From: Escherichia coli | GTDB lineage: Bacteria; Pseudomonadota; Gammaproteobacteria; Enterobacterales; Enterobacteriaceae | DNA: 64,000 nt | Direction: 5' to 3' (one strand) | Assembly: GCF_030384885.1 (NCBI RefSeq) | Contig: NZ_CP128615.1 | Part shown: in pieces, positions 2,446 through 27,678 of the stretch | Layout: each line of letters begins with the position of its first letter | Numbering within the stretch: position 1 is the stretch's first letter | Position numbers and translations under genes: made by a program | Notes under the pieces: model-generated | Database searches by the model: none | The model's input: the letters and a program-made list of their open reading frames with translations, nothing else | What the model was told of the DNA's origin: nothing

Positions 2446-2676
2446 ATGCGCACAGTTTCGATATTTAAAAACGGCAATAACCGCGCCATCCGTCTGCCCC
2501 GGGACCTGGATTTTGATGGCGTCAGCGAGCTGGAGATCGTCCGGGAAGGGGACAGCATCATTCTGCGTCCCGTCCGGCCGACCTGGGGCTCGTTCGCGCA
2601 GCTGGACAGGGCCGATCCGGACTTTATGGCGGAGCGTGAGGATGTGGTCAGCGATGAAGGACGCTTTGAGCCATGA
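2446..2676 (+). CDS. vapB: VapB/VagC antitoxin (AbrB/SpoVT-type)
   Basis: 76-aa protein MRTVSIFKNGNNRAIRLPRDLDFDG...; 4-bp overlap with downstream PIN toxin gene; palindrome-rich promoter region upstream (2280-2445). Confidence 0.9.
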   Translation: MRTVSIFKNGNNRAIRLPRDLDFDGVSELEIVREGDSIILRPVRPTWGSFAQLDRADPDFMAEREDVVSDEGRFEP

Positions 2677-5525: not shown

Positions 5526-5589
5526 GGGCAGTCAGTATGGCAGTGATGACTGGCAGCGGTTCTGCCGGGCCAATAATCTGGTACCGAGC

Positions 5590-5802
5590 ATGAGCCGTCG
5601 CGGCAACTGCTGGGATAATGCAGTGGCAGAATCGTTCTTCAGTTCACTCAAAAAAGAGCGCATCAGGAAGCGGATATACAAAACCCGGGACATGGCCCGG
5701 GCGGATATTTTCGATTATATTGAAGTGTTCTACAACCGGGCCCGGCGCCACAGTCATCTCGGCGGCGTCAGCCCGGAGGCCTTCGAAAAGGCCTCGCAGT
5801 GA
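5590..5802 (+). pseudogene. IS3-family transposase OrfB, 3' part (frame open from about 5527: GSQY...SMSRRGNCWDNAVAESFF)
   Basis: C-terminal DDE-region motifs of IS3 transposases resume immediately after the IS110 insert. Confidence 0.75.
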
Positions 5803-5909
5803 GGACAGAAACTGTCTACCGGAGCGTGGTCACTCCACATTTAAAGAAACGAGCTTTGGTAAACATACCTGTAATGACTCCATAAAATGGCGCGTCAAAC
5901 GACACCTAA

Positions 5910-7985
5910 TCAATTAACCCCAAGCGCCTTAAACACGGCATCGACGGGGTCTGCATAAAAGCTGATCTGGAATTTTGAGAACAACTCAGCAGGAACCGTT
6001 GGAATATCTGAGGCTGAGGCCATTGGGAGCAAAATACGCTTTGCGCCACTGTCCATAGCTAACTGAAGACTGCCTGCAAGATCTTGAACAGGATTGACGA
6101 CACCACCTAAAGTCATCTCACCCAAAACAACCATCTGCTCTTGAATCGGTCGGTTCATCAGAATTGAACAGAACGCAATTAATGCAGCGAGCGATGACTT
6201 TGTACTTGGCCCCGTATTGTGGAGCTCAACAACATGGAGGTGATACTCATGATCAGAAAACTTCGCCGACGCACTGATTCTATTCAGGTTACCTTTGAAA
6301 TAATCAAAGCCAACACGCACAGCTTCTTTCGCTGCGGTATTCGAACCAAGGCCAGACACTGAGTGTTTACCAGAACCAGCCATCATCTGGGTTTCATAGC
6401 GATATAACCCAAGCTGCCCAGTGCTTCCCTGAGTAACCAAGTGCACGACACCAGCGCGAGGTAAGCCCTCAGGAATTAGCTTGCTGCCACCTTGTTCCGG
6501 TACATTGATGAAGAATTCTTCTAATGAATCGTTATCGATGTAGCTAAAGTGCACATCAAAAAATTCCATTCCGCCAAGCTTTTTCAATTGCTCTTTGACT
6601 CTACGTCTAGTTTCCAGCGCATAGGTCAGGCAGGCTCTTACATCATCTTTTGTGTACTGTGCGTCGGGGTGTAGTAGCTTTAACAAGCCCGAAACAGTTC
6701 TGCGTACAGCAATTACATCACGCTGATTAAGGTTATTACCGAGTTTGAAGAACTTATCGATAGCATCCGCAAAACTTCTTTTGCGCATTTCACGCATGTA
6801 TTCAGCAAGATAGTCTGTGATTAATCCGTAACTATTGGTGAAAAACTCAGGACGCATCTTCGGTATTTCCCATCCAGGAATATAGGAATGGAAACGGTCA
6901 AAAAAAGCAGTGTCAATCATGGCTTCAGGAAAAGGTGCCAACAGATGACTGGTCTTCACCAGTGTCTCAACGCTTTGATTGATGTTACCGACGAATACCA
7001 TGGAAGCCTTCGCTTCGATTGAATCACGACCACGGGCAAAAGACCCTGACGCCATATAATCTTTCATTATTTGGACGCCGTCTTTGTCTTTAAAGTTAAT
7101 ACCCGCTACTTCATCAAAGGCGACAACATCCCACATTCCGACCAACCCAACTTGGCGCGAGCTCATGTTATAGAACAAGTTCGCCACAGTTGTTTGTCCG
7201 CCCGAGACAAGCAATGAGTTTGGTGAGCACTCCTTGTAGACATGGCTTTTACCTGTCCCTCTTGGTCCGAGCTCACAAACGTTGTAGTTGTTTTCAACGA
7301 ATGGGATCATACGAGTGATAAGATGCCATTTCACCCGATGCTCTAAGTTGGTTGGCTCCATACCCACGGAACGAAGCAACACATCCATCCACTGATCGGT
7401 ACTAAAATGTCTTCTGGTTGAAAACACCTCATCCATGTTCATGGACGGCATTTGTATCGGTTTTAAACTCATAATGGAGAAAGGTGATGTCTTCTGACCT
7501 TCCTCAAAGAAATACTGGACGGTAATAATGCACCAGATGCCGCCAGTTAATAATTTTTCGTTGTCTTGTACTATTTTGGTCGGTACAAGGGCATCCTTGA
7601 TACCCAGGTTCGACAACGCAGCTTCATAGACGTCTTTTTTCTGGTTGAGCTTAACGCTTACTTTGTCGATGATTTTAAACGTGCCGCGTTCACGGATCAG
7701 TGACTTCACTTTCTCCGCTTCATCTGGTCGGACATAGTTCTCAGCCAAGATTTTTTTTACATTATCAAGGCCTTGCATTACAACTTCGTCGTCATCGGAC
7801 GCACAATACATGCCTAGTAAATACTCAAGCACATAGACAGGGACGTTAGCGCCTTCTTTCAATTGCTTTGTCAGATCTTTTCGAACGACACGGCCTTTAA
7901 AATATTGGTTGAGCAATGCGTCTAAATCGGCGCTTTGCATCTGATTTTTTTCGTCTTTATGATCTTGTGAAAAATCAGTTGTCAT
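5910..7985 (-). CDS. brxL: BREX protein BrxL (Lon-like protease domain protein)
   Basis: 691 aa; last gene of a brxA-brxB-brxC-pglX-pglZ-brxL syntenic block; Walker-like GPRGTGKSH and C-terminal Lon-protease-like region. Confidence 0.85.
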   Translation of the reverse strand: MTTDFSQDHKDEKNQMQSADLDALLNQYFKGRVVRKDLTKQLKEGANVPVYVLEYLLGMYCASDDDEVVMQGLDNVKKILAENYVRPDEAEKVKSLIRERGTFKIIDKVSVKLNQKKDVYEAALSNLGIKDALVPTKIVQDNEKLLTGGIWCIITVQYFFEEGQKTSPFSIMSLKPIQMPSMNMDEVFSTRRHFSTDQWMDVLLRSVGMEPTNLEHRVKWHLITRMIPFVENNYNVCELGPRGTGKSHVYKECSPNSLLVSGGQTTVANLFYNMSSRQVGLVGMWDVVAFDEVAGINFKDKDGVQIMKDYMASGSFARGRDSIEAKASMVFVGNINQSVETLVKTSHLLAPFPEAMIDTAFFDRFHSYIPGWEIPKMRPEFFTNSYGLITDYLAEYMREMRKRSFADAIDKFFKLGNNLNQRDVIAVRRTVSGLLKLLHPDAQYTKDDVRACLTYALETRRRVKEQLKKLGGMEFFDVHFSYIDNDSLEEFFINVPEQGGSKLIPEGLPRAGVVHLVTQGSTGQLGLYRYETQMMAGSGKHSVSGLGSNTAAKEAVRVGFDYFKGNLNRISASAKFSDHEYHLHVVELHNTGPSTKSSLAALIAFCSILMNRPIQEQMVVLGEMTLGGVVNPVQDLAGSLQLAMDSGAKRILLPMASASDIPTVPAELFSKFQISFYADPVDAVFKALGVN

Positions 7986-8001
7986 GTTTCACCTCAGCGC
8001 C

Positions 8002-10674
8002 TTAGAAAAAATCATCTTGGAATGCCAAATCAATGGTTACCGCGTATTGGCTATAACGGGTTCTCATTTCCGCATTCTCAAGAACTAATGTGTATTGAGC
8101 GTTTCTATCGAACTGGGAGCCAATAAGCTTTAACCTAGCTTCGCGAGTACGTTCATCCATCACTTTACTCACGCTATCAAAGTTAATCGTTTCACGACTG
8201 GAGACTTCATTACCTTGTGCATCGACGATATAGACATCCAACAACCGTGCGACGAAACGCTCGCCTACAGGGTCTGTCTGAATAAATCTGACCTTGTCGA
8301 TATTGTTTACTAATTTGATGGGCTGAGTGGCTGCTACAACACCTACCGGTTGTTTCTCATGTTTTGCTGCTTGTTCTTTTTGTAGCTCTCGCACATGTAG
8401 TACCGGTACGCAGACTTCCTGTAGCATCGCTCCGCCATGCACAAACTTAGCACCACCAACGAAGTGGAAGCGTTGAGCCGCTTTTGGAAGCAGGAACTCG
8501 GTATCACTTGAGCCATGAGCCGTATCGTTAATTGAGCCTTTCCAACAGGCTTCATCTGAAGGCAAGTTATTACCAACGATATAACGTTTCTTGGCTTCTA
8601 TCGCTCCAGCAGGTTTGGTTTTCAACGAGGTTTTGTCAGCCGCTACAAGTGCTTTTTGTTGGAAGAGGAAGCCATGGTCAGCAGTGATCACAACTCGGCT
8701 GCCGTTTAGACGGTTGATGACCCGCCCAACGAGGTCTTTTAGCTCTTCAATGGCACTACGACAGGCTTCAAACGTTTTCTCTTCAGTTGCTGCCTTATCA
8801 CCAATCGCATCAATGGTATCGTGATAGATATAAACGACTTCTACGTCTCGAACCTTGTCACGCCCCTCCTGGTTACTCCAGCTCATCAGTTCCTTAGAAC
8901 TCACTGCCATACCACCTACTTTTTGTAGGATGGCGTTGCGGTTGTCTAGACCCTGTGAAGAAATACCATCCACATAAACAGCCGTGCCTTGCTCTGGCTG
9001 GTAACTGAGCGCCTTATGAGGCAATAATGCCGCCATCCCAAGTTGGGTATAACTCGGCAAAACGCCCAACTGCGTAGACACCTCAGCCTTAAATCGCTTC
9101 TCGTTGTTAATGATAGCGCCAAGCTCATTCGCAATTTCAAAACGCAGGGCATCAGAGATGATCACAAACACTCGTTTTGTCTGTTTCAGACTCAGTCGTG
9201 TGCGAACTTCTTTTTCATAGAAGTCATACTGGTGCGGTACGCCAGAAATCTGCCACTTTTCAAGTAATTTTTCATTGGCCAAGTGACGATCCCATGCAAG
9301 GCCAAGCTCATACAAGTACCAGTTGGTATAAATGCTTTCGACTTCGTCGTCGAGCTGACGCAGTATGTCTGCACCTTTACTCAATACAGAGTGCACATGC
9401 TCATTGAACAAACGGTAAGCCTGGTCAAAACGATAAATGTCTGTGGTATAGGCGTCGTACATTGCTTTCGCGTTATCAAAGTGGAACCCATCCACATAGC
9501 GATTTCGCAAGTGCATTAACTCTTCAGCGTTGCGGATAGCTTCATAAATTGCGAAGTATTCTTTGCGTGACAATGTCCAGTGGCTAGAAAGACGTCTTGA
9601 TAAGACCGTATCAAACTGAACCCGGTCTAGCGCTTTACTGCTATCGAGCAAATCACGAACTAAACCACGGATTATGGCCTGTTCCACAGCTTCGAACGTT
9701 TCGCATTCGATAAGCTCAACCGGATGGTACTGCCCAGCACGAGTCGAAATTTCCAACTGTTGGCTAAGCACCTTAGAGATGCTTTCGTAGTAAGCGGCGA
9801 AAGAGCGGCTGTCGCGCCAGCTCACCATAAACGCCAAGGCTGTCGCCCGGCCTGATGCGCTTTTTAGAACATTGTTAAGCAACCAATCGCGTTCAACACC
9901 TTCAATTTGGCTCCAGAATTCAGTACAGAATAATTTCAACACGAAGTCTGAGAAGGTTGGCTCTTCAACTGTATAGCCAAAACCCTCACTCAGATATGCC
10001 CAGAGTGAGGTCTCAAGATCAAACTTTCCTAGCTGGCTCCATAAAGGTTGACCAAGGCTTTCATCTTCGATATAAGCCGCATATTCGCGTAGTAACCCAA
10101 GCAGAATGTCCGACAAAGACGCAGAATCAGCTTTTACAACCACTGCCATCATCTTTCTGTCTAACGACAGTTCGTCTTCGTTCTCAGTCACCCACTTTTT
10201 TAAACCGGCTATGCGCTGTTTATTGGCAAAAAAGCTCTGGCGCTTACGAATGTGCGTGCGAAGCGCCATTTTCGGAATACCCAGCTCATTAAGCAGCATT
10301 GAGCTGTGATCAGCAAAAAACTGCTCGCTATACAAACGCACGTCTAGCAACCAATCGCGGTCAGGCTCTGGCTCAGCGCTTGGAAAATAGATAAGGAATT
10401 TAGCTTCACGCTCATCTACTTCAATGCGTTTTTTCACTGCCAATACAGACTCATTGCCCATATTGAGGATGGTCAAATCATTTGGAAGCACCCGTGCAGT
10501 TTTATCCGCCGATTTATCGTCTGTTTCTTTTGCAAGCCCTTCTTTTGCAATAGAGAGGGCGTTAGCTAAATGCTCAAGCTCTTCAGTAAAGCTTTGCTCT
10601 GGGTCGTACCAAAACACAATGCGGCTTTGTTCAAATTTGGCAGCAACGCCTTGTGCCAGTTCACTAATCTGCAT
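8002..10674 (-). CDS. pglZ: BREX protein PglZ (alkaline-phosphatase superfamily)
   Basis: 890 aa; position between pglX and brxL; size and composition match PglZ. Confidence 0.85.
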   Translation of the reverse strand: MQISELAQGVAAKFEQSRIVFWYDPEQSFTEELEHLANALSIAKEGLAKETDDKSADKTARVLPNDLTILNMGNESVLAVKKRIEVDEREAKFLIYFPSAEPEPDRDWLLDVRLYSEQFFADHSSMLLNELGIPKMALRTHIRKRQSFFANKQRIAGLKKWVTENEDELSLDRKMMAVVVKADSASLSDILLGLLREYAAYIEDESLGQPLWSQLGKFDLETSLWAYLSEGFGYTVEEPTFSDFVLKLFCTEFWSQIEGVERDWLLNNVLKSASGRATALAFMVSWRDSRSFAAYYESISKVLSQQLEISTRAGQYHPVELIECETFEAVEQAIIRGLVRDLLDSSKALDRVQFDTVLSRRLSSHWTLSRKEYFAIYEAIRNAEELMHLRNRYVDGFHFDNAKAMYDAYTTDIYRFDQAYRLFNEHVHSVLSKGADILRQLDDEVESIYTNWYLYELGLAWDRHLANEKLLEKWQISGVPHQYDFYEKEVRTRLSLKQTKRVFVIISDALRFEIANELGAIINNEKRFKAEVSTQLGVLPSYTQLGMAALLPHKALSYQPEQGTAVYVDGISSQGLDNRNAILQKVGGMAVSSKELMSWSNQEGRDKVRDVEVVYIYHDTIDAIGDKAATEEKTFEACRSAIEELKDLVGRVINRLNGSRVVITADHGFLFQQKALVAADKTSLKTKPAGAIEAKKRYIVGNNLPSDEACWKGSINDTAHGSSDTEFLLPKAAQRFHFVGGAKFVHGGAMLQEVCVPVLHVRELQKEQAAKHEKQPVGVVAATQPIKLVNNIDKVRFIQTDPVGERFVARLLDVYIVDAQGNEVSSRETINFDSVSKVMDERTREARLKLIGSQFDRNAQYTLVLENAEMRTRYSQYAVTIDLAFQDDFF

Positions 10675-13600
10675 TAGTTAACCTCCGGGGCCGAACCGGT
10701 AATGGCCTTAACATCAGCCAACAGATCACCAAACTTGCCGTAATTCACTTTCACGCCATCATCCAAATCCAGTGAAATACGCATATCAGCGTAGTGTTTT
10801 AGCTTGTCATCAAACTCGCGTAGTTCAACCTGTTTCTTGATTAAGGCATCCAACTCTTTCTTGAAGCGGTTCGCTTCACTGGTCGAGTCTGCCGTTTCAA
10901 TCTGCTTCTCAAGCTGCTCTGCATAAGCATCGTATTTGCCGAGTAACGGGGTGACATACTCGGTACGCATACGCGAAAGCGTGCCCTCGTTGTAACGGTG
11001 CAGGTAAACCAGGCACTCAAAAGCCTTCTGTTTGCCTGAGCTAAACAACCAATAAATAGGACGTTTTTTGTATGTCTTCAGGTGGTCTTTGTAGAATTGA
11101 GTCGATAAATAGCGGCGGATCGTCTCAAGAGCTGATTCTGATTTTTTGGGCTTTATGGCATTTAAGCACAGAGACTCTGCAACAAAATCGAGATTTTCTT
11201 GTAAGTGTTCTTCACCCCAAACAACTTGGACAAACTCGCGGAAACGATTGGTTGCGTCGTCCTTGAACCATTCTTGGTCGGTTAGGGGAATGATGCCATT
11301 TTCGTCGGCAGCAAAAGATTGATAAGCACCTTCGGCAACGAGTTTATCAAACCCATAATTACAAGCATGAGCGTAGACTAAGCCTTCACGATCAAGAGAG
11401 TAACGCCCCATCATGCAACCAATGGAGTAACTAATGAGTTCACAGGTTGTATCAGATTTTAACTTACTTAAATCAGTAGAATTTTCATATCGAAAAGCAG
11501 GGTTAGCAAATAATGATAGTGTTGAAATATCTATTGAAACCGGCACCGAAATTCCAAAATCATTGCATATTAAAGAATTAACTTCACTTTCCAAATTGGC
11601 TTGTTCATTAACTAGATTTAACTTCACTTCATTTAGAACCTGATAAGATTCAGCAATTTTGGCACGTTTTATTTTACACAGAGGCGAACATTCAAAGTTC
11701 CATGACGTTTCGTACATATCCCAATCAACCTTTGCGTTGGAAATTAAATCGCTCACCTTTTCAAACAATGCTTCTTTGTCAGCCTTATTGAAAATTGCCG
11801 GCAATGAGGCTATTTGACTCGTTTCATAGTTAAGCGTTGGCGAAATGATTTTTAACTGTTCCAGCACTACAGATGAGTTTAACTGAGCCAATAAGGCATA
11901 TTCTTCAATTCGAGAATTAAGAAATACTGATGCACCTGCAACGTCAAATATCGCTCCTTCAGGCTGCCATCTGAACGATGGAATTCCACTCGAAATTTTT
12001 GACCAAGTTACTGAGCTACGAAAATAAAATGCACCATTTTTCACAGTTCTAGTAGGAGACCCATACAAACTTTTAGCGTATGCAAATACCTCTTCACCTG
12101 CATTTTCCCAATTAATTACGTATTCCTGATTGCCATACCATTTTCTATATGAACCGCCTTTATTATATGGAAACCATTTGAATCCTGAGGATTCAGCTTC
12201 ATCTTTAGAACTAGAGTCATACATTGAGGTGTTTACTGGAACTTCATGCCATAGCCTTAAGAATCTATTATTATCACTTGTTTGACACCCAACTCTAGTT
12301 TTAGCAACTGACGATATTGGCGCGTCCATAAATGTATTTAATATTTCCTTGGCAACCCAATAAGCAATCGGACTCCCAGGAATCTTTTTGAAATCATCCT
12401 GAGCTGTCGCTGCAAATTCATTCTCTCTATTGAGCAATGCTTTTTGCTTTTCTTCTTCATTGCCATCTATCAGCCTATAAAAGGTAGGTTGATAATGATT
12501 GATGTGCTTATTTTGAATAATCCAGGCAGTAGTCTGTACAACCTCGCCACTAATCTGACTAAAAGCGCGTGCACCGAGGTGAGCCATAGTAATAAATGTA
12601 TGGTCTTCCAATAAATTGTTTCTTAGTTGCTCATAACTCGACAAGAACATCCACGATTGCATATTGATTTGAGCATTAAATCCATATTGAGAAAGCAATT
12701 TAAATGCTCGCTCCATAAAAATGGCAAACAAGTCTGATTTACTATTTGGGTATTGTTTCTTAGCAAACTCTTTCAAATCTGCATTCATTCCTTTTGCTCC
12801 CATATAGGGAGGATTAGCAATCACAGCATCGTAACGAATAGATAAAACCAAAGCCTGGTGAACAAACTCAATCAATTGCTTCGCTGCCAGCTTCTGCATT
12901 GAGTCGCCTGACTCTTGTAGCTCTACTAGCGTGCTCAGGAGCTCTTTTAGCTGTTCATGGTCATCGCTTGGTACATCAATCAATGAACCAAAGGTCTTGG
13001 CTTGAGTAAATCTTGCCAACGTTCGCTTCAGCAGTTGGTAGCGGTTGTCTGCATTGAACGAGCTTAAATCTTGCTCTTCGTCAGAGAACAGTCCTTGTGA
13101 TGTGCCGCTTTGCCAACTTCCCGATAGGTTGAGTGCTTTCCATAAGGTCGGCAGATCAATATGGTTACTTTCCTGCAATGACAGTACATTGAGTCGCACG
13201 TTACGGGTAAAAATACGCTTGTCGTCATCTCTCGCCATCATCATCAGGGCAAAGCCAGATAGCTGTGCTGCACGATCATCTATGTCCAAGCCGAAGAGGT
13301 TGTTCTCCAGGATCATCTTTGGAATGTCACGAGAGCGGAAACCACGTTCTTCGTAGATGGCTTTTAGTACGTTGTAAGCTTCAATCAGTATGTGGCCCGA
13401 GCCACAAGCGGGATCGAGTACTTTGATGGTTTCAGGTTCAATCGATTCTGGCGTAATAGCCTTTAGCTGTTGGTTAACTTCGTCAGATTGCTGCGCAGGC
13501 TCAATGTAGTATTCCATCTGGCTTTTAATGGCAGAGTCTGGGTAGGTTTGCAGCCATTGACGACCGACTGAGTTTTGTACCAGGTACTTTACAATCCAGT

Positions 13601-14342
13601 TAGGTGTAAATAGCTGAGTAGCGGCAGGAATGTCTTCACTTTTGACTACTTTTCCGATGACCTGATCTTTCTTTTCAGAAATGTAGAATTGGTAAAGCCA
13701 ACCAATCACTTCGACTTGTTGCCAGTCCTCTTCAGGGATGCCGTCTACCAATCCACGCAGAATGGAGTCGGTACGCATTAGGTTGTCTGGTAGCAGAAGC
13801 TCTGTTTCATCGTCCAATGCGTCAAATAAGAAAGGCATCGCTTCATGTAGCTTATGGCACTGGCCTAACAGCAGTTCACGATACAGCTCTTCGTCTTTGT
13901 TGCCCGCAAGCTTGAGTTCAACAATGCGAGCTCTATCTAATCCGAGTTCATCCGCAGCGTCTTGGGCATGGTCGATAATTTCAAAGCCTTTAGGGTTGTC
14001 TGGGTGCGACAAAACACGAAAACCGTGGCCTAGATAGTCATGGATTTCCATATAGCGAATAGCACACAGACGGTTGAACCAGGTATAAGCTACTTGTTCA
14101 ATAAGTTGTGCATACCCAAGTTTCTGGCTTCTGGCTACTATGCGTTTTCTGGGCTCGGCCAGTTTACCGTCAAAACTGTTACCAGCGATTTGAAGCACAG
14201 AACCTTGTAGATTCGCTTCTGCAATTTGTAGCTCGCCCTTTTTATTCGCGGTGATACCAAAGGTATTTAATCGTTTAGCTACCGCATCCATAAATTCGCG
14301 GCGCGCTTTTGGTGCGTATTTTTTAATGTTGTTCGTATTCAT
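10674..14342 (-). CDS. pglX: BREX N6-adenine DNA methyltransferase PglX
   Basis: 1222 aa; contains the amino-methyltransferase motif IV NPPY (VIANPPYMGAKGMN) and an AdoMet-binding-like LDPACGSGHIL motif. Confidence 0.9.
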   Translation of the reverse strand: MNTNNIKKYAPKARREFMDAVAKRLNTFGITANKKGELQIAEANLQGSVLQIAGNSFDGKLAEPRKRIVARSQKLGYAQLIEQVAYTWFNRLCAIRYMEIHDYLGHGFRVLSHPDNPKGFEIIDHAQDAADELGLDRARIVELKLAGNKDEELYRELLLGQCHKLHEAMPFLFDALDDETELLLPDNLMRTDSILRGLVDGIPEEDWQQVEVIGWLYQFYISEKKDQVIGKVVKSEDIPAATQLFTPNWIVKYLVQNSVGRQWLQTYPDSAIKSQMEYYIEPAQQSDEVNQQLKAITPESIEPETIKVLDPACGSGHILIEAYNVLKAIYEERGFRSRDIPKMILENNLFGLDIDDRAAQLSGFALMMMARDDDKRIFTRNVRLNVLSLQESNHIDLPTLWKALNLSGSWQSGTSQGLFSDEEQDLSSFNADNRYQLLKRTLARFTQAKTFGSLIDVPSDDHEQLKELLSTLVELQESGDSMQKLAAKQLIEFVHQALVLSIRYDAVIANPPYMGAKGMNADLKEFAKKQYPNSKSDLFAIFMERAFKLLSQYGFNAQINMQSWMFLSSYEQLRNNLLEDHTFITMAHLGARAFSQISGEVVQTTAWIIQNKHINHYQPTFYRLIDGNEEEKQKALLNRENEFAATAQDDFKKIPGSPIAYWVAKEILNTFMDAPISSVAKTRVGCQTSDNNRFLRLWHEVPVNTSMYDSSSKDEAESSGFKWFPYNKGGSYRKWYGNQEYVINWENAGEEVFAYAKSLYGSPTRTVKNGAFYFRSSVTWSKISSGIPSFRWQPEGAIFDVAGASVFLNSRIEEYALLAQLNSSVVLEQLKIISPTLNYETSQIASLPAIFNKADKEALFEKVSDLISNAKVDWDMYETSWNFECSPLCKIKRAKIAESYQVLNEVKLNLVNEQANLESEVNSLICNDFGISVPVSIDISTLSLFANPAFRYENSTDLSKLKSDTTCELISYSIGCMMGRYSLDREGLVYAHACNYGFDKLVAEGAYQSFAADENGIIPLTDQEWFKDDATNRFREFVQVVWGEEHLQENLDFVAESLCLNAIKPKKSESALETIRRYLSTQFYKDHLKTYKKRPIYWLFSSGKQKAFECLVYLHRYNEGTLSRMRTEYVTPLLGKYDAYAEQLEKQIETADSTSEANRFKKELDALIKKQVELREFDDKLKHYADMRISLDLDDGVKVNYGKFGDLLADVKAITGSAPEVN

Positions 14343-14357
14343 ATGATCTTGCGCCTC

Positions 14358-16121
14358 TTATTCTGTCTCTACGCTGTTTGCGGGTTGTAATGCGGTTCTA
14401 ATGCGGGCAAGCAGTGTTTCCTGACGCTCGCGGTAAAAGTCCATAAACTGGTTTAGTTGTTCAGGTAATGATGTTATGGCTTGCGATTGCAGATGTGCTT
14501 GTCTTGCATTCACATCAGGCCACTGCTGCGCATACCATTCATGGGGCATTTTTTGCCGCTTCTGGTTGTTGATTGTCCCTTCCAACAGTTGAAGGTTTGG
14601 CAGCTTGTTAGATGCCTCGATGAGTTCATCTAGCTGTTCAGCTGGGACACCAACTTTTGCAAGCTTGTTACGCGTAAACAAACCTTTGGGGTAAATGTGG
14701 TCCACATGAAAGTGTCGTGAAAAATCGAATCCTGGGAACAACAAAGTCAACAAGGCAAAGGTACGCGGATTACCATAATCCAACTGCGCTAGTTCACTAA
14801 TTTCCTCTGGGTCAAAGCGCAACGATTTACCACGCTGTTGCATGGTCGCTTCAATTTTCGCTAGCGGGAAACCCGTATCACCCGATTGTTTAATGTCTGA
14901 GCGAAGCATAGTAAGCAGGGTATCCAAACCACTTCCCCAGATGCCTGACGCTTTCAACAACGACCTAATGAGCCAGTTTCTGATGCATTCTCTATCGACC
15001 GCATATTCAACCCTAGAAAGGTAGCTTGCCGTTAACTTTCGGTGGTGCAGGTAATAGGCTAACGGGAGGATGGCACTTGTTGCTCTGAGGTTTTGTGCAT
15101 TAAAACCAAAACTTGCCAGCAACTGCATTGAGAGCAATAACGCATCACGAATTGGCGTCCAGTTCTTTTCGAGAATCGCCATATTTTCCTTGTTAAAGTT
15201 CTCAACCTTAAAGCCCACGCTACCGATGTCAGAGAGCATTAAGCCTGCTTTTAAAACGAGATCTTTTGATACGTTGAATCCATCACCAACACGGTTCATC
15301 TCATCCACTAAGGCATGAATTTCTTCACGGGCATCTAACGAGCTCCACTGCGCTACGGCTATTGAAAGTAGTAAGTCTGAGTAGGACAAAGTAGTGCCGC
15401 CGCTATTCATGCGGATAAAGATATTCAGAACACGTTCAAGGCTCTGATCACTTTCTTCGTAAAACGAAATCTTATCTTTGTCATGGATAGTTCGATACAA
15501 GTGACGAAGAGTTGAGCGAGCCTCTTTGCGTTGCTCCGAGCTCAACCTAGCATCATCAGCAACTTCATCGATAAGTGCATCTTCTTCCTCTTCCATGATC
15601 CGGCCTACACGGAACCAGTATTGTTCAGATGCATCCAAAGAGGCTTTATCGTCGGTTAGGAACTCAAAGTCATACATCGACCCAGTTTCTAAGTCGGGCT
15701 GGCTTAACAGATTTAAGTGAAGCCTGCGCACTGGGAAGGCGTCATCATTGCTCCACCATTTACCTGTCAGCTTCCACGCAAATGAGCCGCGTAGGCCGAT
15801 GTTCAAAGCGGTAATCCGCTGCTGTCCATCTAGGACGGCAATGAACTCACGCTCTGGTAACTGAGTGACATTTTCACAATGGTAGTTATCTCGCTCATGG
15901 TAATGCTGCATGAACTGATAAAACTGATAGCTATGCCGGTTCTCTGGTTTTATCTTCCAGAATAGAAAGGTCCCAAACGGGTAACCTTGCAACAGGCTAT
16001 CAAATAGACGACAGATCTGTTCTGGTCGCCATACAAACTCTCGCTGGATGGCCGGTAACAGGTATTCCTGCTCAGCAACCTTGTCGAGTAATGATCTTAT
16101 TGTTCCACCCGCTTGATACAT
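14358..16121 (-). CDS. brxU: GmrSD-family type IV restriction endonuclease (DUF262 plus DUF1524), BrxU-like, embedded in the BREX locus
   Basis: 587 aa; N-terminal DUF262 motifs (LPAIQREFVW, DGQQR), C-terminal DUF1524 His-Me finger motif (HVDHIYPK); sits between brxC and pglX. Confidence 0.75.
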   Translation of the reverse strand: MYQAGGTIRSLLDKVAEQEYLLPAIQREFVWRPEQICRLFDSLLQGYPFGTFLFWKIKPENRHSYQFYQFMQHYHERDNYHCENVTQLPEREFIAVLDGQQRITALNIGLRGSFAWKLTGKWWSNDDAFPVRRLHLNLLSQPDLETGSMYDFEFLTDDKASLDASEQYWFRVGRIMEEEEDALIDEVADDARLSSEQRKEARSTLRHLYRTIHDKDKISFYEESDQSLERVLNIFIRMNSGGTTLSYSDLLLSIAVAQWSSLDAREEIHALVDEMNRVGDGFNVSKDLVLKAGLMLSDIGSVGFKVENFNKENMAILEKNWTPIRDALLLSMQLLASFGFNAQNLRATSAILPLAYYLHHRKLTASYLSRVEYAVDRECIRNWLIRSLLKASGIWGSGLDTLLTMLRSDIKQSGDTGFPLAKIEATMQQRGKSLRFDPEEISELAQLDYGNPRTFALLTLLFPGFDFSRHFHVDHIYPKGLFTRNKLAKVGVPAEQLDELIEASNKLPNLQLLEGTINNQKRQKMPHEWYAQQWPDVNARQAHLQSQAITSLPEQLNQFMDFYRERQETLLARIRTALQPANSVETE

Positions 16122-16137
16122 AGTTATCCGTTGCCTC

Positions 16138-19100
16138 TTACTTAATTCTTACTCGGTCGCCAGCTTTGACCGCAGCAATCAGCTGCTCTCTTAAAGCGGC
16201 AAGATAGGCATCAACTTCGGCTTCACTTTCAATGAATCCGGTTGTTACTGACTTAGCCATGGCATCGGTTGAGTTAATCGTTACGGTACGTTTTGCAACC
16301 GGCTGTGGCTGCACTGGTTCAGAGGCTGGCTCAGGTGCTGGAGCTGCTTTACCGGCTTTCGCTGCTTCCTCTTCGCGTGTCTGCTGTTCGAGTTCACGAC
16401 GTCTTTGCTCAGCTTCAGCTTTTTTGCGTTGATCTTCGATAAAGCCATTCAGCAACTCATAGGCTTCGTCCTCGTAACCTTCCGCTTCAGTTTGCTCACT
16501 GATAATTTGTGGTATTGAAGAGGTCGCTTCAATACGCTGTCTGCACATTTGTAACGGGCGCAGTGCTTGGTTCTGTAATTCAGACGGTGCATGAGCTTCA
16601 GCTAGCGCTTCTTTTACACGTCCGATGCGCAGATCAACACGCTCTAAGGCATGAGTGCGTTTTTCTTCAACCAATGTTGAGTTAATTTTTGCCACCTGCT
16701 CGATAAGCGGATTAATGTGGCGCAGCTGCTCATACGGCGAGGGCATATTGTAAATGCGTTCTAATTCAGTGAGCGCTTTTAATGCTTCACTGTCTTTTTC
16801 TAACGCAGGTCTATTGGCCTTAAACTTCTCGTTCAATGCGCCAGCAAGGGCTTGCCAAGTTTGAAATTGGCTATTGTAGAAGTCATCAAGATCCTCAAAG
16901 TCCTCAGCAAACTCTTCAAGGGCATCAGCGTTTTCTAAGAATCGGGTGATAAGAGCGAAGCTTGAAGTTTGCTCAAGAATACCCGCGACCAATGCAAGAC
17001 CATCGTCAATTTGAGATTTACCTGGGAAATGGCCTGTCTGTGACTTGGTTCTGAATGATTTAAGCTCTTCATTCCAAGCCAGTAATTCATCGCGCACTAA
17101 TTCGTAGAGCTCCTTTTCACCAGAGCCGGTAAAGGTTTTTGAAAAGATCTCTTTAACAAGACCAGCAGCCTTTTTGATTTGGCGCTCGTCATGTTGCCTG
17201 ATTTTATGTACACGGATCTCACCGCGTTTACGCACGCTGGTAAACGGCTCGTAAGCTTTTTTCAACGCCAGATCTGTGCCCTGGGTACTAAAAGATAACT
17301 TTCCAGCCAAGCCCAGCCTTGCAGTGAGCAATAAGATTTCATTGTCTGGCCAGCCATACGGGCGCTTGCCGAAGTGGGCAACGATGTCACGTAAGTAAAC
17401 AGGCTCATTACGCTCGACTTTTAGCGTTACGTACTGCTCAACCTCACGCGTAGCTTCTGGGTTACATTCATCCGCTTGAAGATCCAGTCCAATCTGAGCA
17501 ATATCATCAGCAACAAGTACGGCCTGTAGCTCACGCAAAACTTCACCAGGCGTCGCCTTGAGCATGTTCAATTTAGCGAAGGTGTTTTCGATAACGTATT
17601 TGTATGCTTCTTCGACGATGGCACTTGGCGTTGCTGATTTCTTCGGTAGTTTTGTGCCGATAGCGTAAACGTCAGCCTCTGCAAACAAAGCTTCAAAATC
17701 CGTTCTTAAGCGTTTTTCACGCTCAATATTTTCCATCTGCTTTTCGCGGAGAAGGTGTTCTTGCTCTGGTCGCTGTCCTGAATTTTGTTTTAAGAATCGG
17801 TCAGTTTTTATAAAGGTTGTCAGGTCATCCCAAAGACGTTTATGTTCGCCCAGCTTGACGAGCACGCACCCATCAGCCTCAAGCGTATGATTGATGCAGG
17901 CTTGATCGTGGGAGTAATTTTCAAAGTGCGAATCCAAAGGTGAAATGACTTTAATGACTAGATCTTCCAGCGTGGTGCCATCTTTTGGATGACCATTGCA
18001 AAAACGGCTCACCGCAAAGTCTTGCTTATTAATCGGGTATCGATAGGCACGATTACCTTTCAAAATACCGTCAAATACGATTGCTGAAAGCTTGTTAGAG
18101 ACCTCTGACATTTCAACGTCAGTGTGGCGGATCTCGTTTTCAATCTCTTTTTCTTCGTTGGTCAGGAAGATAAATTCATCACCATTACGCGCAATCAGCA
18201 ATTGGCGTTCAAGACGATTCAAGCTCTCTTCAATTTGTTTACGCAGCGCAATTTTATCTGCATCGATTCGATCAATTGACAGCGTCACAAGGTTGTCTAG
18301 TGTGCTTTTGACAACGTCCACATAACGGATCAAGAAAAGAGTTTTTAGAATCTTGCCATCGAATTCTGTTAAGGAATCCAACTCACAGGCTTGGTCAATC
18401 GTTCGCTTAACCGCTGGCTCCAAAAAGCTTTCAATCGGTGCATAGAAACTGTAAAACGGGATTAACACATCAAGGCCAGAGTCCTTCATCTGTTTTGCAG
18501 CTGATTGGAAAGCATCAAGTAATGAACGCTCACCCATGGCTAAGTGCTTACCCGTCGCGCCTTTTGTTCGAATTGACTCAAACACTTTTTGAACCAGCGT
18601 GTAGTGGTAAGGCACAAACGGATAGTTGTCCACGAAAGACGGAGCGTCGGTGTAGCCCTTTAGAGACGCAGTTGTCGTTTTATCAAATGTCAGCTGGTTA
18701 CGAAGAATGTCGCCCTTTTCAGCAAACACATCGATGAGGTGTGTACGAGCTTCTTCCGTTTTGGACAACAAACGCTTTTGAATAACTTCCGAGGTATTCG
18801 AGCTCGACAGCTGCAAGCGGGTACTAAAACGCCCTTGAATTTTAGAGAAGTCCTCGCCATCGCGCTTATCCATACCACCAATGGCAGCATCAATGTCTGC
18901 CTGAGAGGTAACAACGACCCAAGCTCTGCCACCACAATATGTGCCAAGATCTTCAGTAATGGTCTGAAGCTTCAACATCATTTGTGTGTTCTTACCGATA
19001 AACTGACCGACTTCATCGACTAAGAAAAGAAGGTTACGATCTCCAGTTCGATCTAAGTATTCATTAACCCACTTACAGAAGTTTCGGATATCTAGCGGGA

Positions 19101-19815
19101 AATTGTTTTCAACCTGTTCAACCCACGCTTTGGCAGACTCTAATGATTGCTCACTGGCATGAGCGAGTGCTTCTGAAAGTTCGTCTCGATAGAAGTCATA
19201 GGCGTCACGCTCCTTTTCCCAAGTTGATTGAGTCAACTCAGCAAATTTGTCCTTGAAAGACATGTATTGATTACGCTTATCAAGCTCGCGTTCTAAATGC
19301 GCAATGTGAGGAAAATCAGCGCAGTATCCTACACGCTCATTAAAGACTTTGAGGAAGACCTTAAGAATGGCATTTTCTCGGTCATCCGTATTGGCTCGTG
19401 AATCGATGTTAAAAAGAATAACATCAGTGTCTTTGGTAACAGCGTTTTGGATATCGGCCAACAGCATGGCATCGTTGATTTTGTCTTTAAAAAACTCAAA
19501 TGCTTGACGGCCTTGGCCATCCTTTTCGACAGACTTATTTTCGAGGAGGTAAGACAAAATTTTCAGGAAGTGAGACTTACCCGAACCAAAGAAGCCAGAG
19601 ATCCACACACCAATTTTTCCTGACATTGATGCGCCACTTTGCGTCACAGATGGAACGTAAGCCTCAAAGAAAGCGCGAAAATGTCGATCTAGCTCTCGGG
19701 TTACAACATACTCATCAAGTTCGACATACACACTGTCATTGTCTTTCTGTTCCGCTTTAACAACGCCGTTAATATCACGCGTCAACTTCTTGGAAAAAAT
19801 CTGTTCAATTTTCAT
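16138..19815 (-). CDS. brxC: BREX ATPase BrxC/PglY
   Basis: 1225 aa; Walker A GFFGSGKSHFLK near N-terminus; position after brxB. Confidence 0.85.
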   Translation of the reverse strand: MKIEQIFSKKLTRDINGVVKAEQKDNDSVYVELDEYVVTRELDRHFRAFFEAYVPSVTQSGASMSGKIGVWISGFFGSGKSHFLKILSYLLENKSVEKDGQGRQAFEFFKDKINDAMLLADIQNAVTKDTDVILFNIDSRANTDDRENAILKVFLKVFNERVGYCADFPHIAHLERELDKRNQYMSFKDKFAELTQSTWEKERDAYDFYRDELSEALAHASEQSLESAKAWVEQVENNFPLDIRNFCKWVNEYLDRTGDRNLLFLVDEVGQFIGKNTQMMLKLQTITEDLGTYCGGRAWVVVTSQADIDAAIGGMDKRDGEDFSKIQGRFSTRLQLSSSNTSEVIQKRLLSKTEEARTHLIDVFAEKGDILRNQLTFDKTTTASLKGYTDAPSFVDNYPFVPYHYTLVQKVFESIRTKGATGKHLAMGERSLLDAFQSAAKQMKDSGLDVLIPFYSFYAPIESFLEPAVKRTIDQACELDSLTEFDGKILKTLFLIRYVDVVKSTLDNLVTLSIDRIDADKIALRKQIEESLNRLERQLLIARNGDEFIFLTNEEKEIENEIRHTDVEMSEVSNKLSAIVFDGILKGNRAYRYPINKQDFAVSRFCNGHPKDGTTLEDLVIKVISPLDSHFENYSHDQACINHTLEADGCVLVKLGEHKRLWDDLTTFIKTDRFLKQNSGQRPEQEHLLREKQMENIEREKRLRTDFEALFAEADVYAIGTKLPKKSATPSAIVEEAYKYVIENTFAKLNMLKATPGEVLRELQAVLVADDIAQIGLDLQADECNPEATREVEQYVTLKVERNEPVYLRDIVAHFGKRPYGWPDNEILLLTARLGLAGKLSFSTQGTDLALKKAYEPFTSVRKRGEIRVHKIRQHDERQIKKAAGLVKEIFSKTFTGSGEKELYELVRDELLAWNEELKSFRTKSQTGHFPGKSQIDDGLALVAGILEQTSSFALITRFLENADALEEFAEDFEDLDDFYNSQFQTWQALAGALNEKFKANRPALEKDSEALKALTELERIYNMPSPYEQLRHINPLIEQVAKINSTLVEEKRTHALERVDLRIGRVKEALAEAHAPSELQNQALRPLQMCRQRIEATSSIPQIISEQTEAEGYEDEAYELLNGFIEDQRKKAEAEQRRRELEQQTREEEAAKAGKAAPAPEPASEPVQPQPVAKRTVTINSTDAMAKSVTTGFIESEAEVDAYLAALREQLIAAVKAGDRVRIK

Positions 19816-19833
19816 TCGGGAGGCTCCCTGCTC

Positions 19834-20427
19834 TTAATTTTTTTTACCGTCTTCAGGCACAAGCTTGAAGGCGCGATAGTAGTTTTTAGATTCGATCATG
19901 CCGAAAGGATGCAAATCCCTTCCGCTATATTCACCCGGATAGAAAAGCACTAATGGCGTGCTACCCATAACGTCTTGCAGAGCACTAAGTAACTCATGTC
20001 CTCGGATAAGAGGCCACGCACTGCCTAAGCCTGACAGCAACACAAACTCAAGTTCTGATGGCTTATATTTGTCCGCGATATACCTTGCCACTTTCTCTTG
20101 GCTCAGAGGCCCGGCTAGTGTTTTTCGAAGGCCATCAACACCGACTTGCAATTCACGCTGGCAAGCTCGGTCGAAAAGGCCTCGCTCCTCAAGCATATCT
20201 ATCAAGACTTCAAAAATATTGAGATGGACAAAGCGGTAACCACGCTTGTTGAGTTTTTCGTCAACGTGCTTAATGTGCTCTCGTACAAGCAGTTCATACT
20301 TGGCTGGATAGTCAAATACCCAAAATCCAATTTCATTGCCCAAGCCATCGTTTTTCAAAAACTTAGGGCTTTCAATTCGTTCCAGTATCAGATCAAGCCT
20401 GGTCTGAAGAGCCTTCATATTGTGCAC
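19834..20427 (-). CDS. brxB: BREX protein BrxB (DUF1788)
   Basis: 197 aa; overlaps brxA by 13 bp; size and position as in type 1 BREX. Confidence 0.8.
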   Translation of the reverse strand: MHNMKALQTRLDLILERIESPKFLKNDGLGNEIGFWVFDYPAKYELLVREHIKHVDEKLNKRGYRFVHLNIFEVLIDMLEERGLFDRACQRELQVGVDGLRKTLAGPLSQEKVARYIADKYKPSELEFVLLSGLGSAWPLIRGHELLSALQDVMGSTPLVLFYPGEYSGRDLHPFGMIESKNYYRAFKLVPEDGKKN

Positions 20428-21014
20428 TCCATTACCTCAATCAAATCTTCCCGGCCCAGACGAACTAACCAGTCTTTAACTTCTGGCATTAGGTAAACAG
20501 GTTGTATTTTCTTTGTCCTGCTATCACTCAGGTAGCCACTATCAACCAGTGCCTTAATTGCGTTGTTACCCATTTTTTTGACAGTTGAGTCAGAAAAACC
20601 GCCAAGCTCAGCATATGCCCGCACTCTCGTGTCATAAAACTCAGACCATGCATCAGCGGTTAAAGAGGGTTTATAGGTGCGACGAGCTTCGGCTAAGGTA
20701 AGTCGCATAAAATAAGCGACAACCGGAGAATGAATGAGTAATGACATCATCAGCATTTGGACATAGGCACGTTCACTCGCGGCTAAAAGATCAGTCATAA
20801 ACTCATCACCCAGGCCTTCAATACGCCAACGGATTGTTCTGGCATAACGAATAGCCGTCTGACCGGATTTTTTCTGAAGAACATTTTGCTCAACGATCAG
20901 CGACTTCCACTCATCTTCTGGAAGTTTTTTCAATAGCGATTCTGCGATTATTCTAGATTCAGTTATCAATAAACTGCCTCCGATAAGATCGCCTAAATAT
21001 TCTTTTATATTCAT
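20415..21014 (-). CDS. brxA: BREX protein BrxA (DUF1819)
   Basis: 199 aa; first structural gene of the BREX block. Confidence 0.8.
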   Translation of the reverse strand: MNIKEYLGDLIGGSLLITESRIIAESLLKKLPEDEWKSLIVEQNVLQKKSGQTAIRYARTIRWRIEGLGDEFMTDLLAASERAYVQMLMMSLLIHSPVVAYFMRLTLAEARRTYKPSLTADAWSEFYDTRVRAYAELGGFSDSTVKKMGNNAIKALVDSGYLSDSRTKKIQPVYLMPEVKDWLVRLGREDLIEVMECTI

Positions 21015-21023
21015 AAATTCATC

Positions 21024-21950
21024 TCACGATTCGCTATATCCAGGAGCGAGTGCAGCATTGTCAACGCCGTATAGTGCTTCTGGATTTTTAAGTGCTAAAT
21101 GGAACTCTCGCCCATTGCTCTTACAATTCTTTGAACAATCGATATTCCATAAACGCAGTAAATATCCAGCGAACGCAGCTCTTATCTCTACACGCAACCT
21201 ATTGTTTTCCATTGCGTAGTCCATCGATACAGCTTCTGGATGTGCTAGTTTTGGATGAGGTATCAGCTCTAGCTCAACGATTCGGTTCCATTGCTTATCC
21301 CACTGAAGAGTCTCAACTTCGTCGTTAACCTCATCCTCTAACAACTCAACTTCACTTATTCTGGTTAAAACAAAATCCCTAAATTCTCTAAGCTTTCTAT
21401 CGAATGCTCGGACATGCCATCTCAAGCCATTGTCAATCAGGGTATGAGGAACTATTTGCCTGCTCCCATGACCACTCGACAATGAGGTGTACTCAATATT
21501 AATCACAGCGCGCTTATGTATGGCTTCACTAATAGCCGCTACAACTTCCAATTTCGGCTTATTGAGATGGAATGGTGCTTCACAAGCCATAGGTGGCCTG
21601 GCCTTGCCAAGAAAGCCATCACCGAACCCTTGGCTTATCGTCGCAAGAGTTCGAACAACGTCATAATCAAACAACGGCTGGAATGCGCTCGTCTTCAAGT
21701 GCACTCTGCGCTTTTCGTCATACATAACGTTGTTAGGAGCCAACTCTTTGTACCGCGCAAAATCTTGTGTTGCCACAGACGGCGCTACGCTAAATCGCTC
21801 GGTTAAATAACTACGCCCAGCTTCACCTTTAAATAACAAAGTGAAATCAATATGAGCGAGTCGTTCTCTCTGTGCTTGGCTAAGCTCTTCAAGTCCAGTG
21901 TTGTCTTGCACTGTCAGCCTCTCAATCCATCTGGGACAAGCCCTAATCAT
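21024..21950 (-). CDS. brxR: WYL-domain transcriptional regulator BrxR (wHTH-WYL)
   Basis: 308 aa; N-terminal winged-HTH-like segment and WYL-like core (QIVPHTLIDNGLRWHVRAFD); directly upstream of brxA. True start may be an internal Met. Confidence 0.7.
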   Translation of the reverse strand: MIRACPRWIERLTVQDNTGLEELSQAQRERLAHIDFTLLFKGEAGRSYLTERFSVAPSVATQDFARYKELAPNNVMYDEKRRVHLKTSAFQPLFDYDVVRTLATISQGFGDGFLGKARPPMACEAPFHLNKPKLEVVAAISEAIHKRAVINIEYTSLSSGHGSRQIVPHTLIDNGLRWHVRAFDRKLREFRDFVLTRISEVELLEDEVNDEVETLQWDKQWNRIVELELIPHPKLAHPEAVSMDYAMENNRLRVEIRAAFAGYLLRLWNIDCSKNCKSNGREFHLALKNPEALYGVDNAALAPGYSES

Positions 21951-22269
21951 TTAAAACTAGGAAGCCATCGATTGAATGCCATCAAGCAACCTACTTTTTT
22001 TCATTAGGTATCATAGTATCAACAAGTCGTCTTGTTGGCTATAAAAATTGGCTTGACGTTGTTCGAATGTTTCTTTTCTGGCCTTGATAGAAGCTCACGC
22101 TGGAATGCCAACTGACGCAATTCATTCTCTCGAACACGCCTAGCAACTTCTGCCTGGGCTGGTAGCTGATCTTGACCCTCCATCTCCGAACAGCTTTTGT
22201 ATCTTAAGTTAACGATGTCCGCTGCCGCCGGTATTCCCTCGGGGAGTGATATCCCAGCGCGCTGTGCGG

Positions 22270-22545
22270 GTGGCTTCCATTTCCATCAGATGTCCTTCCT
22301 GCTCCGCTACTGAAGGCGTGGTGCGTAACGGCAAAAGCACTGCCGGACATCAGCGCTATCTCTGCTCTCACTGCCGTAAAACATGGCAACTACAGTTCAC
22401 TTACACCGCCTCTCAGCCCGGTACGCACCAGAAAATCATTGATATGGCCATGAATGGCGTTGGATGCCGGGCAACCGCCCGCATTATGGGCGTTGGCCTC
22501 AACACGATTTTACGTCACTTAAAAAACTCAGACCGCAGTCGGTAA
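22270..22545 (+). CDS. insA: IS1 InsA
   Basis: [43 protein letters not shown]...; track ORF 22246 start extends beyond the IS1 fragment and is not used. Confidence 0.85.
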
Positions 22546-27573: not shown

Positions 27574-27619
27574 GTCTGGCCTCCGGACCAGCCTCCGCTG
27601 GTCCGATTGAACGCGCGGA

Positions 27620-27672: not shown

Positions 27673-27678
27673 TCAAGC

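Follow-up and report, generated by a model that had tools for sequence, protein, structure and literature searches.

The defence island of plasmid pEFER from Escherichia fergusonii ATCC 35469 (NC_011743) combines a type 1 bacteriophage exclusion (BREX) system with an embedded type IV restriction enzyme, BrxU (Picton et al. 2021, 2022), and protects against 17-22 of 30 coliphages (PMC8565348). BREX, which in this island depends on pglX and has the motif GCTAAT, and BrxU target different phage classes, and BrxU alone suffices against its own class. It cleaves DNA with modified cytosines following a nucleotide-driven switch from dimer to monomer, its nucleotide-dependent substrates being DNA that contains 5-methylcytosine (5mC), 5-hydroxymethylcytosine (5hmC) or glucosyl-5hmC (PMC8565348). 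BrxR of pEFER is a WYL-domain repressor that acts at the brxR and brxA promoters by binding two inverted repeats, R-BOX1 and R-BOX2, and one half-site is sufficient for repression (PMC9122601). The methyltransferase PglX, called BrxX in E. coli HS, determines the specificity of methylation as well as of defence (PMC11341690; PMC11842806). Here we analysed a stretch of 64,000 nucleotides of Escherichia coli DNA (contig NZ_CP128615.1, assembly GCF_030384885.1; hereafter the window), in which eight long, co-oriented and intact open reading frames (ORFs) lie on the minus strand at positions 5910-21950. The locus is an ordinary, near-identical copy of the pEFER island except for a rare, uncharacterised PglX recognition module. 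Systems of this kind, with the same architecture and logic, have been described before, and the exact sequence is in RefSeq with PGAP annotation; the only novelty is the uncharacterised allele of the PglX recognition cassette.

Comparison with the pEFER defence island

An earlier note, made from the sequence of the window, had described a complete type 1 BREX locus with a WYL regulator and an embedded type IV restriction gene that together could act against unmodified and hypermodified phage DNA, and had proposed a comparison with published Escherichia plasmids that carry BREX. That comparison led to pEFER, whose island has the same gene order, brxR-A-B-C-U-pglX-pglZ-brxL. Seven of the eight island proteins are 97-99.7% identical to their pEFER counterparts: the identities are 584/587 (99.5%) for BrxU, 689/691 (99.7%) for BrxL, 1209/1225 (99%) for BrxC and 875/890 (98%) for PglZ, BrxR is ~97% identical over the 295 residues of pEFER BrxR (PDB 7qfz; E = 1e-193, aligned from ORF residue 14), and BrxA matched pEFER BrxA (PDB 7zge) with E = 8e-125. 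The similarity extends beyond the island, as pEFER shares the IncR backbone (rep, parAB, umuDC) at 97-98% DNA identity. Since the proteins are nearly identical and the backbone is shared, the first interpretation, including the division of labour between the two activities, which was shown for the pEFER island (PMC8565348), was correct but describes a system whose architecture and interpretation were already published.

The two plasmids differ around the island. Both carry strAB, whereas the tetracycline gene is tet(A) in the window and tet(B) in pEFER; the flank downstream of the island contains IS110, vapBC and a Gabija-like pair in the window, and a Tn3-family transposon in pEFER. In PglZ, the sole insertion or deletion relative to the pEFER protein comprises 5 residues of a charged stretch at residues ~46-60 (EGLAKETDDKSADKTA vs EVGDSAADITA); alignment to the solved structures of PglZ begins only at about residue 65.

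Gene order and family assignments

All eight genes of the earlier note were found in the ORF listing, and they overlap or abut as it had stated, with intergenic distances of -4 to 18 nt (R-A 9, A-B -4, B-C 18, C-U 16, U-X 15, X-Z -1 and Z-L 16). The listed extents held for six genes, whereas two starts had to be moved. The published brxR start codon (pEFER 12921) corresponds to the GTG at 21911, the longer ORF from ATG 21950 being the RefSeq model, and brxB starts not with the GTG at 20427 but with the ATG at 20418, the RefSeq start in identical plasmids, in a 4-nt overlap with the brxA stop.

Profile hidden Markov model searches assigned every protein to the expected family. The PADLOC calls in transcriptional order were WYL, BrxA, BrxB, BrxC, HEC-05, PglX, PglZ and BrxL, all at E-values between 7e-18 and 0, and PADLOC, NCBIfam and Pfam together assigned all six core BREX proteins. 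PglZ and PglX belong to the BREX-1 subfamilies, and NCBIfam models of other BREX types score far under their cut-offs for these two proteins, so that the locus is a complete type 1 BREX system. The WYL regulator was recognized by Pfam and also matches CapW and Acinetobacter BrxR. The motifs named in the earlier note are in place (Walker A of BrxC, GFFGSGKS, at residue 74; NPPY of PglX at residue 510), as are Walker A of BrxL (GPRGTGKS, residue 240) and the S-adenosylmethionine (SAM)-binding motif of PglX (DPACGSG, residue 310), the last forming with NPPY the signature of a gamma-class N6-adenine methyltransferase. PDB relatives were found for BrxL (8emc), PglZ (9nv3) and BrxC (9zdx). The eight-gene locus was thereby confirmed to be far beyond chance. 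It is also contiguous elsewhere, as the 17 kb are 100% identical and uninterrupted in two complete plasmids, NZ_CP024857 (IncR, E. coli AR_0011) and NZ_CP080127 (conjugative IncF, E. coli).

A different identity for the large methyltransferase, namely a stand-alone type IIG/IIL restriction-modification enzyme outside any BREX system, was suggested by PADLOC, whose best model for it was REase_MTase_IIG (PDLC03600; 1781 bits vs 1589 for the PglX model), and by the fact that MmeI is the closest structural relative of PglX (PMC11341690). We regard this as exceedingly improbable. The protein scores three times the cut-off of NCBIfam BREX_1_MTaseX and can be aligned over its whole length with the Salmonella and E. 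coli homologues PglX and BrxX, whose structures begin with a helical bundle and lack a nuclease domain; in place of an MmeI-like N-terminal endonuclease, its residues 1-227 align to this bundle of Salmonella PglX (PMC11341690), and the gene sits inside brxABC...pglZ-brxL.

A mosaic PglX with a rare recognition cassette

PglX is 74% identical to pEFER PglX overall, and the differences are concentrated in one part of the protein: residues 1-515 and ~1010 to the end are near-identical, whereas identity across residues ~516-1005 is roughly 20-60% per 30-residue window. No megablast-level DNA similarity to pEFER was found over 11443-12792. The unmatched block is narrower (~11446-12348) in comparison with the alleles of the Salmonella Typhi plasmid pK91 and the E. 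coli NMBU_W05E18 chromosome, and the breakpoints of the cassette fall at 11422-11445 and 12349-12355 (or 12793 vs pEFER). Identity profiles against four other alleles confirmed this pattern. In the Salmonella PglX structure, the target recognition domain (TRD) comprises residues 662-849 and is followed by two spacer helices at 850-960 (PMC11341690), limits that match those of the cassette in the window (aa ~665-966). The GC content of the cassette is 0.367, vs 0.456-0.459 in the flanking pglX sequence, and this low-GC segment explains a GC dip in the window. As judged from these alignments, PglX is a mosaic with an imported TRD-plus-spacer cassette.

The same island with other cassettes is found in S. 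Typhi pK91, on the NMBU_W05E18 chromosome and in ~55 PLSDB plasmids. These copies share the backbone at 94-98% DNA identity and have the same cassette junctions (~aa 665 and ~aa 966-973), but each has its own TRD-plus-spacer cassette, 20-66% identical to that of the window per 30-residue window. On the NMBU_W05E18 chromosome (L009:2550-18438), the island runs from brxR to brxL with brxU, lies between IS3 and IS1 fragments and encodes a PglX of 1229 aa; pK91, an IncFIB plasmid (L010), has the island with embedded brxU, its own TRD cassette and a PglX of 1209 aa.

The cassette of the window is rare. At >=99% identity it occurred in 2 out of 72,556 PLSDB plasmids and in 4 out of 5,426 complete E. 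coli genomes, and the next-best plasmid allele is 52% identical at the protein level. A protein database search placed the closest TRDs beyond these plasmids in metagenomes (81%), Shewanella sp. (75%) and Oceanimonas baumannii (69%). Four different plasmids, 65-156 kb in size, carry the exact pglX allele at 99.9-100% identity. E. coli HS BrxX (PDB 9ewz/8zek) and Salmonella D23580 PglX (8c45) align with the window PglX collinearly over the full length and have the NPPY and SAM motifs in common with it, but their TRDs are only ~40% identical to that of the window, and their loci have neither brxU nor brxR.

Predicted recognition motif

The residues that read the target are known for E. coli BrxX on GGTAAG, where R751 reads G1, K681 and D684 the second base pair, Q784 the third, N823 reads A4, and the loop 587-601 reads G6 via E598 (PMC11842806). 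The motif of Salmonella D23580 PglX is GATCAG, and pEFER PglX, with T at position 6 of its motif, has a shortened loop (PMC11842806). In the window PglX, the loop LGARAFSQISGEVVQ matches E. coli HS BrxX 587-601 and Salmonella PglX in 14 of 15 residues, including the Glu equivalent to E598, whereas the pEFER loop is shorter and unrelated to it. N838 occupies the position of the A4 reader N823, together with A802; an Asn and Ala pair at these positions is associated with an A preceding the methylated base (Went et al.). Among the positions that read the first bases, K768 stands at the place of the G1-reading Arg, V684 and Q687 at the second-base positions (K/D in E. coli, A/S in Salmonella) and V801 at the third-base position. 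The covariation described by Went et al. for position -2 (K782/D801) gave a mixed signal, K782 with V801, and therefore no call was made for base 3.

The motif of the window PglX is probably not GCTAAT. From N838/A802 and the E. coli/Salmonella-type loop with its Glu, we tentatively predict a motif of the form NNNAAG, which would differ from GCTAAT at least at position 6, with no call for bases 1-3. Weighing against this prediction, all four compared island alleles share N838 and A/G802, so that this pair does not discriminate between them; moreover, most engineered PglX/BrxX specificity variants were inactive or relaxed (PMC11341690; PMC11842806), which makes any residue-based motif prediction weak. 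It could also be argued that GCTAAT is retained despite the cassette swap, since the N-terminal 515 and C-terminal ~210 residues are near-identical to those of pEFER PglX and N838 and a small residue at 802 are common to both proteins. This is very unlikely, because the TRD, which reads bases 1-4, is only ~20-50% identical to that of pEFER per alignment window, and the loop for the sixth base belongs to the type of E. coli and Salmonella (G6) instead of the shortened type of pEFER (T6).

Literature searches with the accession and strain names found no published motif for this allele. Among the 32 PglX homologues with motifs in the supplement of Went et al. (a noisy machine-read table), no row matched the TRD of the window; Eco6201I alone in that table shares a short stretch, SLYGSPTR, with the window PglX.

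Relatives with a split pglX

The nearest relatives of the TRD are found in loci where pglX is encoded as two genes, in all six distinct contexts retrieved. The N-terminal half (618-664 aa) contains the methyltransferase, and the C-terminal half (564-598 aa) contains the TRD and the C-terminal domain; the break corresponds to residues 640/643 of the window PglX, at the hinge between the methyltransferase and the TRD. Several of these loci have other genes inserted between the halves (Table 1), usually joined by 4-nt overlaps. In the metagenomic locus L005, the TRD of the C-terminal half is 86-100% identical to that of the window over aa 669-870, and its split PglX therefore probably has the same specificity as the window PglX. 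In this locus and in those of Klebsiella aerogenes (L011) and Yersinia enterocolitica (L012), brxC and pglX are also separated by a BrxU-like gene (63% identical for L005), whereas the remainder of the three loci is only ~60-75% identical to the window.

Our literature search found no wording of the "split PglX" type, and the BREX surveys that we looked at do not mention a split PglX. The protein database search returned no full-length PglX, not even that of the query itself, which indicates that its index may miss long proteins; the frequency of fused vs split pglX is not estimable from it.

Taken together, these observations make it somewhat probable that islands of this type swap a TRD-plus-spacer cassette at the PglX hinge to change specificity, that the low-GC cassette of the window came from a distant BREX-1 lineage whose nearest relatives have a split pglX and confers an undescribed motif, predicted as NNNAAG, and that the hinge serves both as a recombination joint and, in the split relatives, as an insertion point for defence genes. 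The island has some practical value as a natural experiment in BREX specificity, since one backbone is combined with at least four recognition cassettes on resistance plasmids, the hosts being E. coli, Klebsiella and Salmonella, S. Typhi among them. Such cassette diversity bears on the host range of phage therapy and on the joint travel of defence and resistance genes, and the motif of the rare window allele would add one data point to the rules relating PglX residues to DNA. As a discovery the locus carries little weight, since the architecture, the dual activities, the regulator and most of the structures are published for an almost identical island.

Conservation of BrxU

BrxU differs from the crystallised pEFER protein (7p9k) by three substitutions, D63H, K141Q and S582N, which avoid every residue known as essential. 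S42, Q101, R102, D474 and H475, mutation of which abolished defence in pEFER, are all conserved. The N-terminal DUF262 domain was recognized by Pfam (GmrSD_N, 8e-34) and contains RLFDS at 38 and DGQQR at 98. The C-terminal DUF1524 HNH domain has DHIYP at 474; the Pfam GmrSD_C match alone is weak (E = 0.013).

Operators, upstream end and activity of the BREX genes

Both operators of BrxR have counterparts in the window (Table 1). The predicted R-BOX2 is identical to that of pEFER, and ~200 bp around R-BOX1 are almost unchanged. Of the 61 plasmids with the operator region, 16 have the variant of the window at an identity of at least 99%, so that this variant is not confined to the present copy; an E. 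fergusonii plasmid is among the sampled matches at 97%. Homology to pEFER stops at 22166 (pEFER 12666, inside an annotated ORF at 12496-12813), beyond which lie IS1 and then IS903; the retained sequence reaches ~154 bp upstream of R-BOX1 and includes the mapped promoter region. No repeats that would mark the island as a composite transposon were found around it, the sole inverted repeat being that of IS903 itself. In a promoter consensus scan, the mapped brxR promoter was not recovered and promoter-like sites were fewer than in shuffled sequences; an Rfam scan found no RNA family inside the island. A GC-rich hairpin followed by a T-run lies downstream of brxL, within the pEFER-homologous core, and is a plausible operon terminator.

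We considered whether the BREX arm might be inactive or misregulated, through an incompatible recombinant PglX, loss of brxS/brxT or a degraded R-BOX1, leaving only BrxU to defend the cell. Two features of the window count in that direction. R-BOX1 has three substitutions in 27 bp, and its inverted-repeat symmetry, counted from the sequence, falls from 10/11 to 7/11, although its IR2 half-site keeps 10 of 11 positions of pEFER. The upstream accessory genes of pEFER, brxS (IS3 fragment) and brxT, as cloned in pBrxXL, are absent, brxT being cut short at the junction on the IS1 side; PMC9122601 refers in one sentence to these upstream genes as necessary for host methylation, whereas their function is termed unclear in PMC8565348. 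In addition, defence is often lost when loops or TRDs of BrxX are swapped (PMC11842806).

Nevertheless, such inactivity appears unlikely, given the conservation of the exact allele on four plasmids, the placement of the cassette junctions at domain boundaries and repression by a single half-site in pEFER. None of the reading frames is interrupted, the mapped brxR promoter region is kept, and three other natural alleles have their junctions at the same places. The BREX systems of E. coli HS and Salmonella reportedly function without brxS/brxT.

We consider that the locus is, very probably, a functional pEFER-type island, that is, a type 1 BREX system under BrxR with brxU between brxC and pglX and with a different BREX motif. 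Activity, regulation and motif are inferred here, and the mechanism is taken from near-identical or homologous proteins. BrxR would bind the R-BOX inverted repeats and repress the brxR and brxA promoters. PglX, within a larger BrxB/C/X/Z assembly, would N6-methylate the fifth adenine of a 6-bp non-palindromic motif in the host and would recognize unmethylated motifs on incoming DNA, whose replication would then be blocked by the BREX complex (PglZ nuclease, BrxC ATPase and BrxL AAA+ ring). Independently, BrxU would bind nucleotide, change from dimer to monomer and cut DNA with 5mC, 5hmC or glucosyl-5hmC, and could in this way catch phages that evade BREX through DNA modification. In the window, the imported TRD-plus-spacer cassette and the "G-type" sixth-base loop of PglX would direct the system to a motif other than GCTAAT.

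Distribution and plasmid context

A megablast search of PLSDB with window positions 5500-22500 found, besides the two plasmids with the contiguous identical island, ~55 further plasmids of Escherichia, Salmonella, Klebsiella and Raoultella that cover at least 80% of this segment. The same island is likewise present in the chromosome of an E. coli strain, between insertion sequence (IS) elements. The earlier note had placed the locus on an IS-rich, plasmid-like background next to resistance transposons, and this holds: rep, parAB and umuC, tet(A) and strAB are in the window (Table 1), and elements of the Tn3 family and IS elements are spread through it. There is a physical linkage of defence and resistance genes, since the island lies on an IncR multidrug-resistance plasmid and also on conjugative IncF plasmids; the IncR plasmids are typed mobilizable or non-mobilizable.

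Table 1. Coordinates of the island, its predicted sites, the plasmid genes of the window and the split-pglX loci (positions are those of the window unless a locus handle is given)
Feature	Position	Strand	Remarks
brxR	ORF 21024-21950, 308 aa; 21024-21911, 295 aa from GTG	-	winged helix-turn-helix (wHTH)-WYL transcriptional repressor; Pfam WYL
brxA	20415-21014	-	DUF1819, 199 aa; PADLOC BrxA 5e-108; Pfam PF08849
brxB	ORF 19834-20427, 197 aa; 19834-20418, 194 aa from ATG	-	DUF1788; PADLOC BrxB 6e-71; Pfam PF08747
brxC	16138-19815	-	P-loop ATPase, 1225 aa; NF033441 1221 bits vs cut-off 400
brxU	14358-16121	-	587 aa; PADLOC HEC-05 (= BrxU); Pfam GmrSD_N
pglX	10674-14342	-	BREX-1 N6-adenine methyltransferase/specificity subunit, 1222 aa; NF033452 1528 bits vs cut-off 500
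pglX specificity cassette (TRD and two spacer helices, aa ~665-966)	11446-12348	-	DNA breakpoints vs three other island alleles
Putative sixth-base-reading loop, methyltransferase domain aa 589-603, LGARAFSQISGEVVQ	12534-12578	-	counterpart of the loop that reads the sixth base in E. coli BrxX
pglZ	8002-10674	-	BREX-1 PglZ type A, 890 aa; TIGR02687 945 bits vs cut-off 270
brxL	5910-7985	-	Lon-related AAA+ protein, 691 aa; TIGR02653 1347 bits vs cut-off 628; PADLOC BrxL
R-BOX1, predicted BrxR operator	21986-22012	-	just downstream of the brxR promoter; GATACCTAATGAAAAAAAGTAGGTTGC vs pEFER GAAACCTACTGAAAAACAGTAGGTTGC, three substitutions
R-BOX2, second predicted BrxR operator	21194-21220	-	within the 3' part of brxR, upstream of brxA; ACTACGCAATGGAAAACAATAGGTTGC, identical to pEFER 13612-13638
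Candidate operon terminator	5683-5702	-	GC-rich hairpin and T-run ~210 nt downstream of brxL; 7 pairs, 6 G-C (consensus scan)
Island core common to pEFER	5616-22166	.	blastn: 5616-11442 at 96.9%, 12793-22166 at 97.3%; broken only by the pglX cassette
IncR pEFER-type rep gene	54177-55043		
parAB	51137-53316		
umuC	49784-51055		
tet(A)/tetR	26374-28329		~4.4 kb from brxR
aph(3'')-Ib/aph(6)-Id (strAB)	40237-42062		
Tn3-family transposase genes	28661-31627 and 35497-38382		
Split pglX, metagenome (ENA ERZ23879330 NODE_156)	L005:4586-11776		between halves: SIR2 and DUF87/HerA-like ATPase
Split pglX	L006:460-7650		between halves: same arrangement as L005 (SIR2 and DUF87/HerA-like ATPase)
Split pglX, Aeromonas	L007:4326-11797		between halves: 1007-aa reverse transcriptase and 228-aa protein
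Split pglX	L008:3222-11791		between halves: 539-aa and 67-aa proteins and 998-aa reverse transcriptase
Split pglX, Methanomethylovorans	L013:6662-11695		between halves: 498-aa protein, no Pfam match
Split pglX, Yersinia enterocolitica	L012:8010-11797		nothing between halves
Split pglX, Klebsiella aerogenes	L011:7776-11797		nothing between halves

Other features of the window

A third defence system is suspected on pEFER outside the island (PMC8565348). In the window, a Gabija-like pair at 1-2156 (+) adjoins vapBC (2446-3089), ~3.7 kb from brxL. It consists of the C-terminal part of a GajA-like ATPase/OLD protein (ORF 22-1149; PADLOC GajA 6e-73), whose gene extends past the left end of the window, and of a short GajB-like UvrD helicase (1134-2156, 340 aa, 2e-47); at least 80% of these 2.3 kb is covered by 1,586 PLSDB plasmids. 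An AAA ATPase and nuclease pair that stands beside the island in CP024857 was considered as well, and was set aside as it is not in the window, which diverges from CP024857 after 25207. On the brxL side, an IS110-family transposase gene (NCBIfam "RNA-guided transposase") at 4431-5507 (+) lies ~110 bp past the end of the core at 5616.

For a 247-aa ORF at 56896-57639 (-), PADLOC gave a match to PDC-S67 (4e-45), one of its candidate defence families; the 209-aa ORF downstream (56270-56899), which shares 4 nt with it, is weakly similar to tyrosine recombinases. A group II intron lies at 47460-49277 (-), with an Rfam group-II-D1D4-6 match at 49052-49277 (187 bits). Its reverse transcriptase/maturase is encoded by two overlapping ORFs (48445-49047 and 47460-48470) where related plasmids have a single 502-aa ltrA, which suggests a frameshift in the window copy. 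Finally, Rfam matched the E. coli small RNA UptR at 61192-61283 (+), with 123 bits vs a gathering score of 100.

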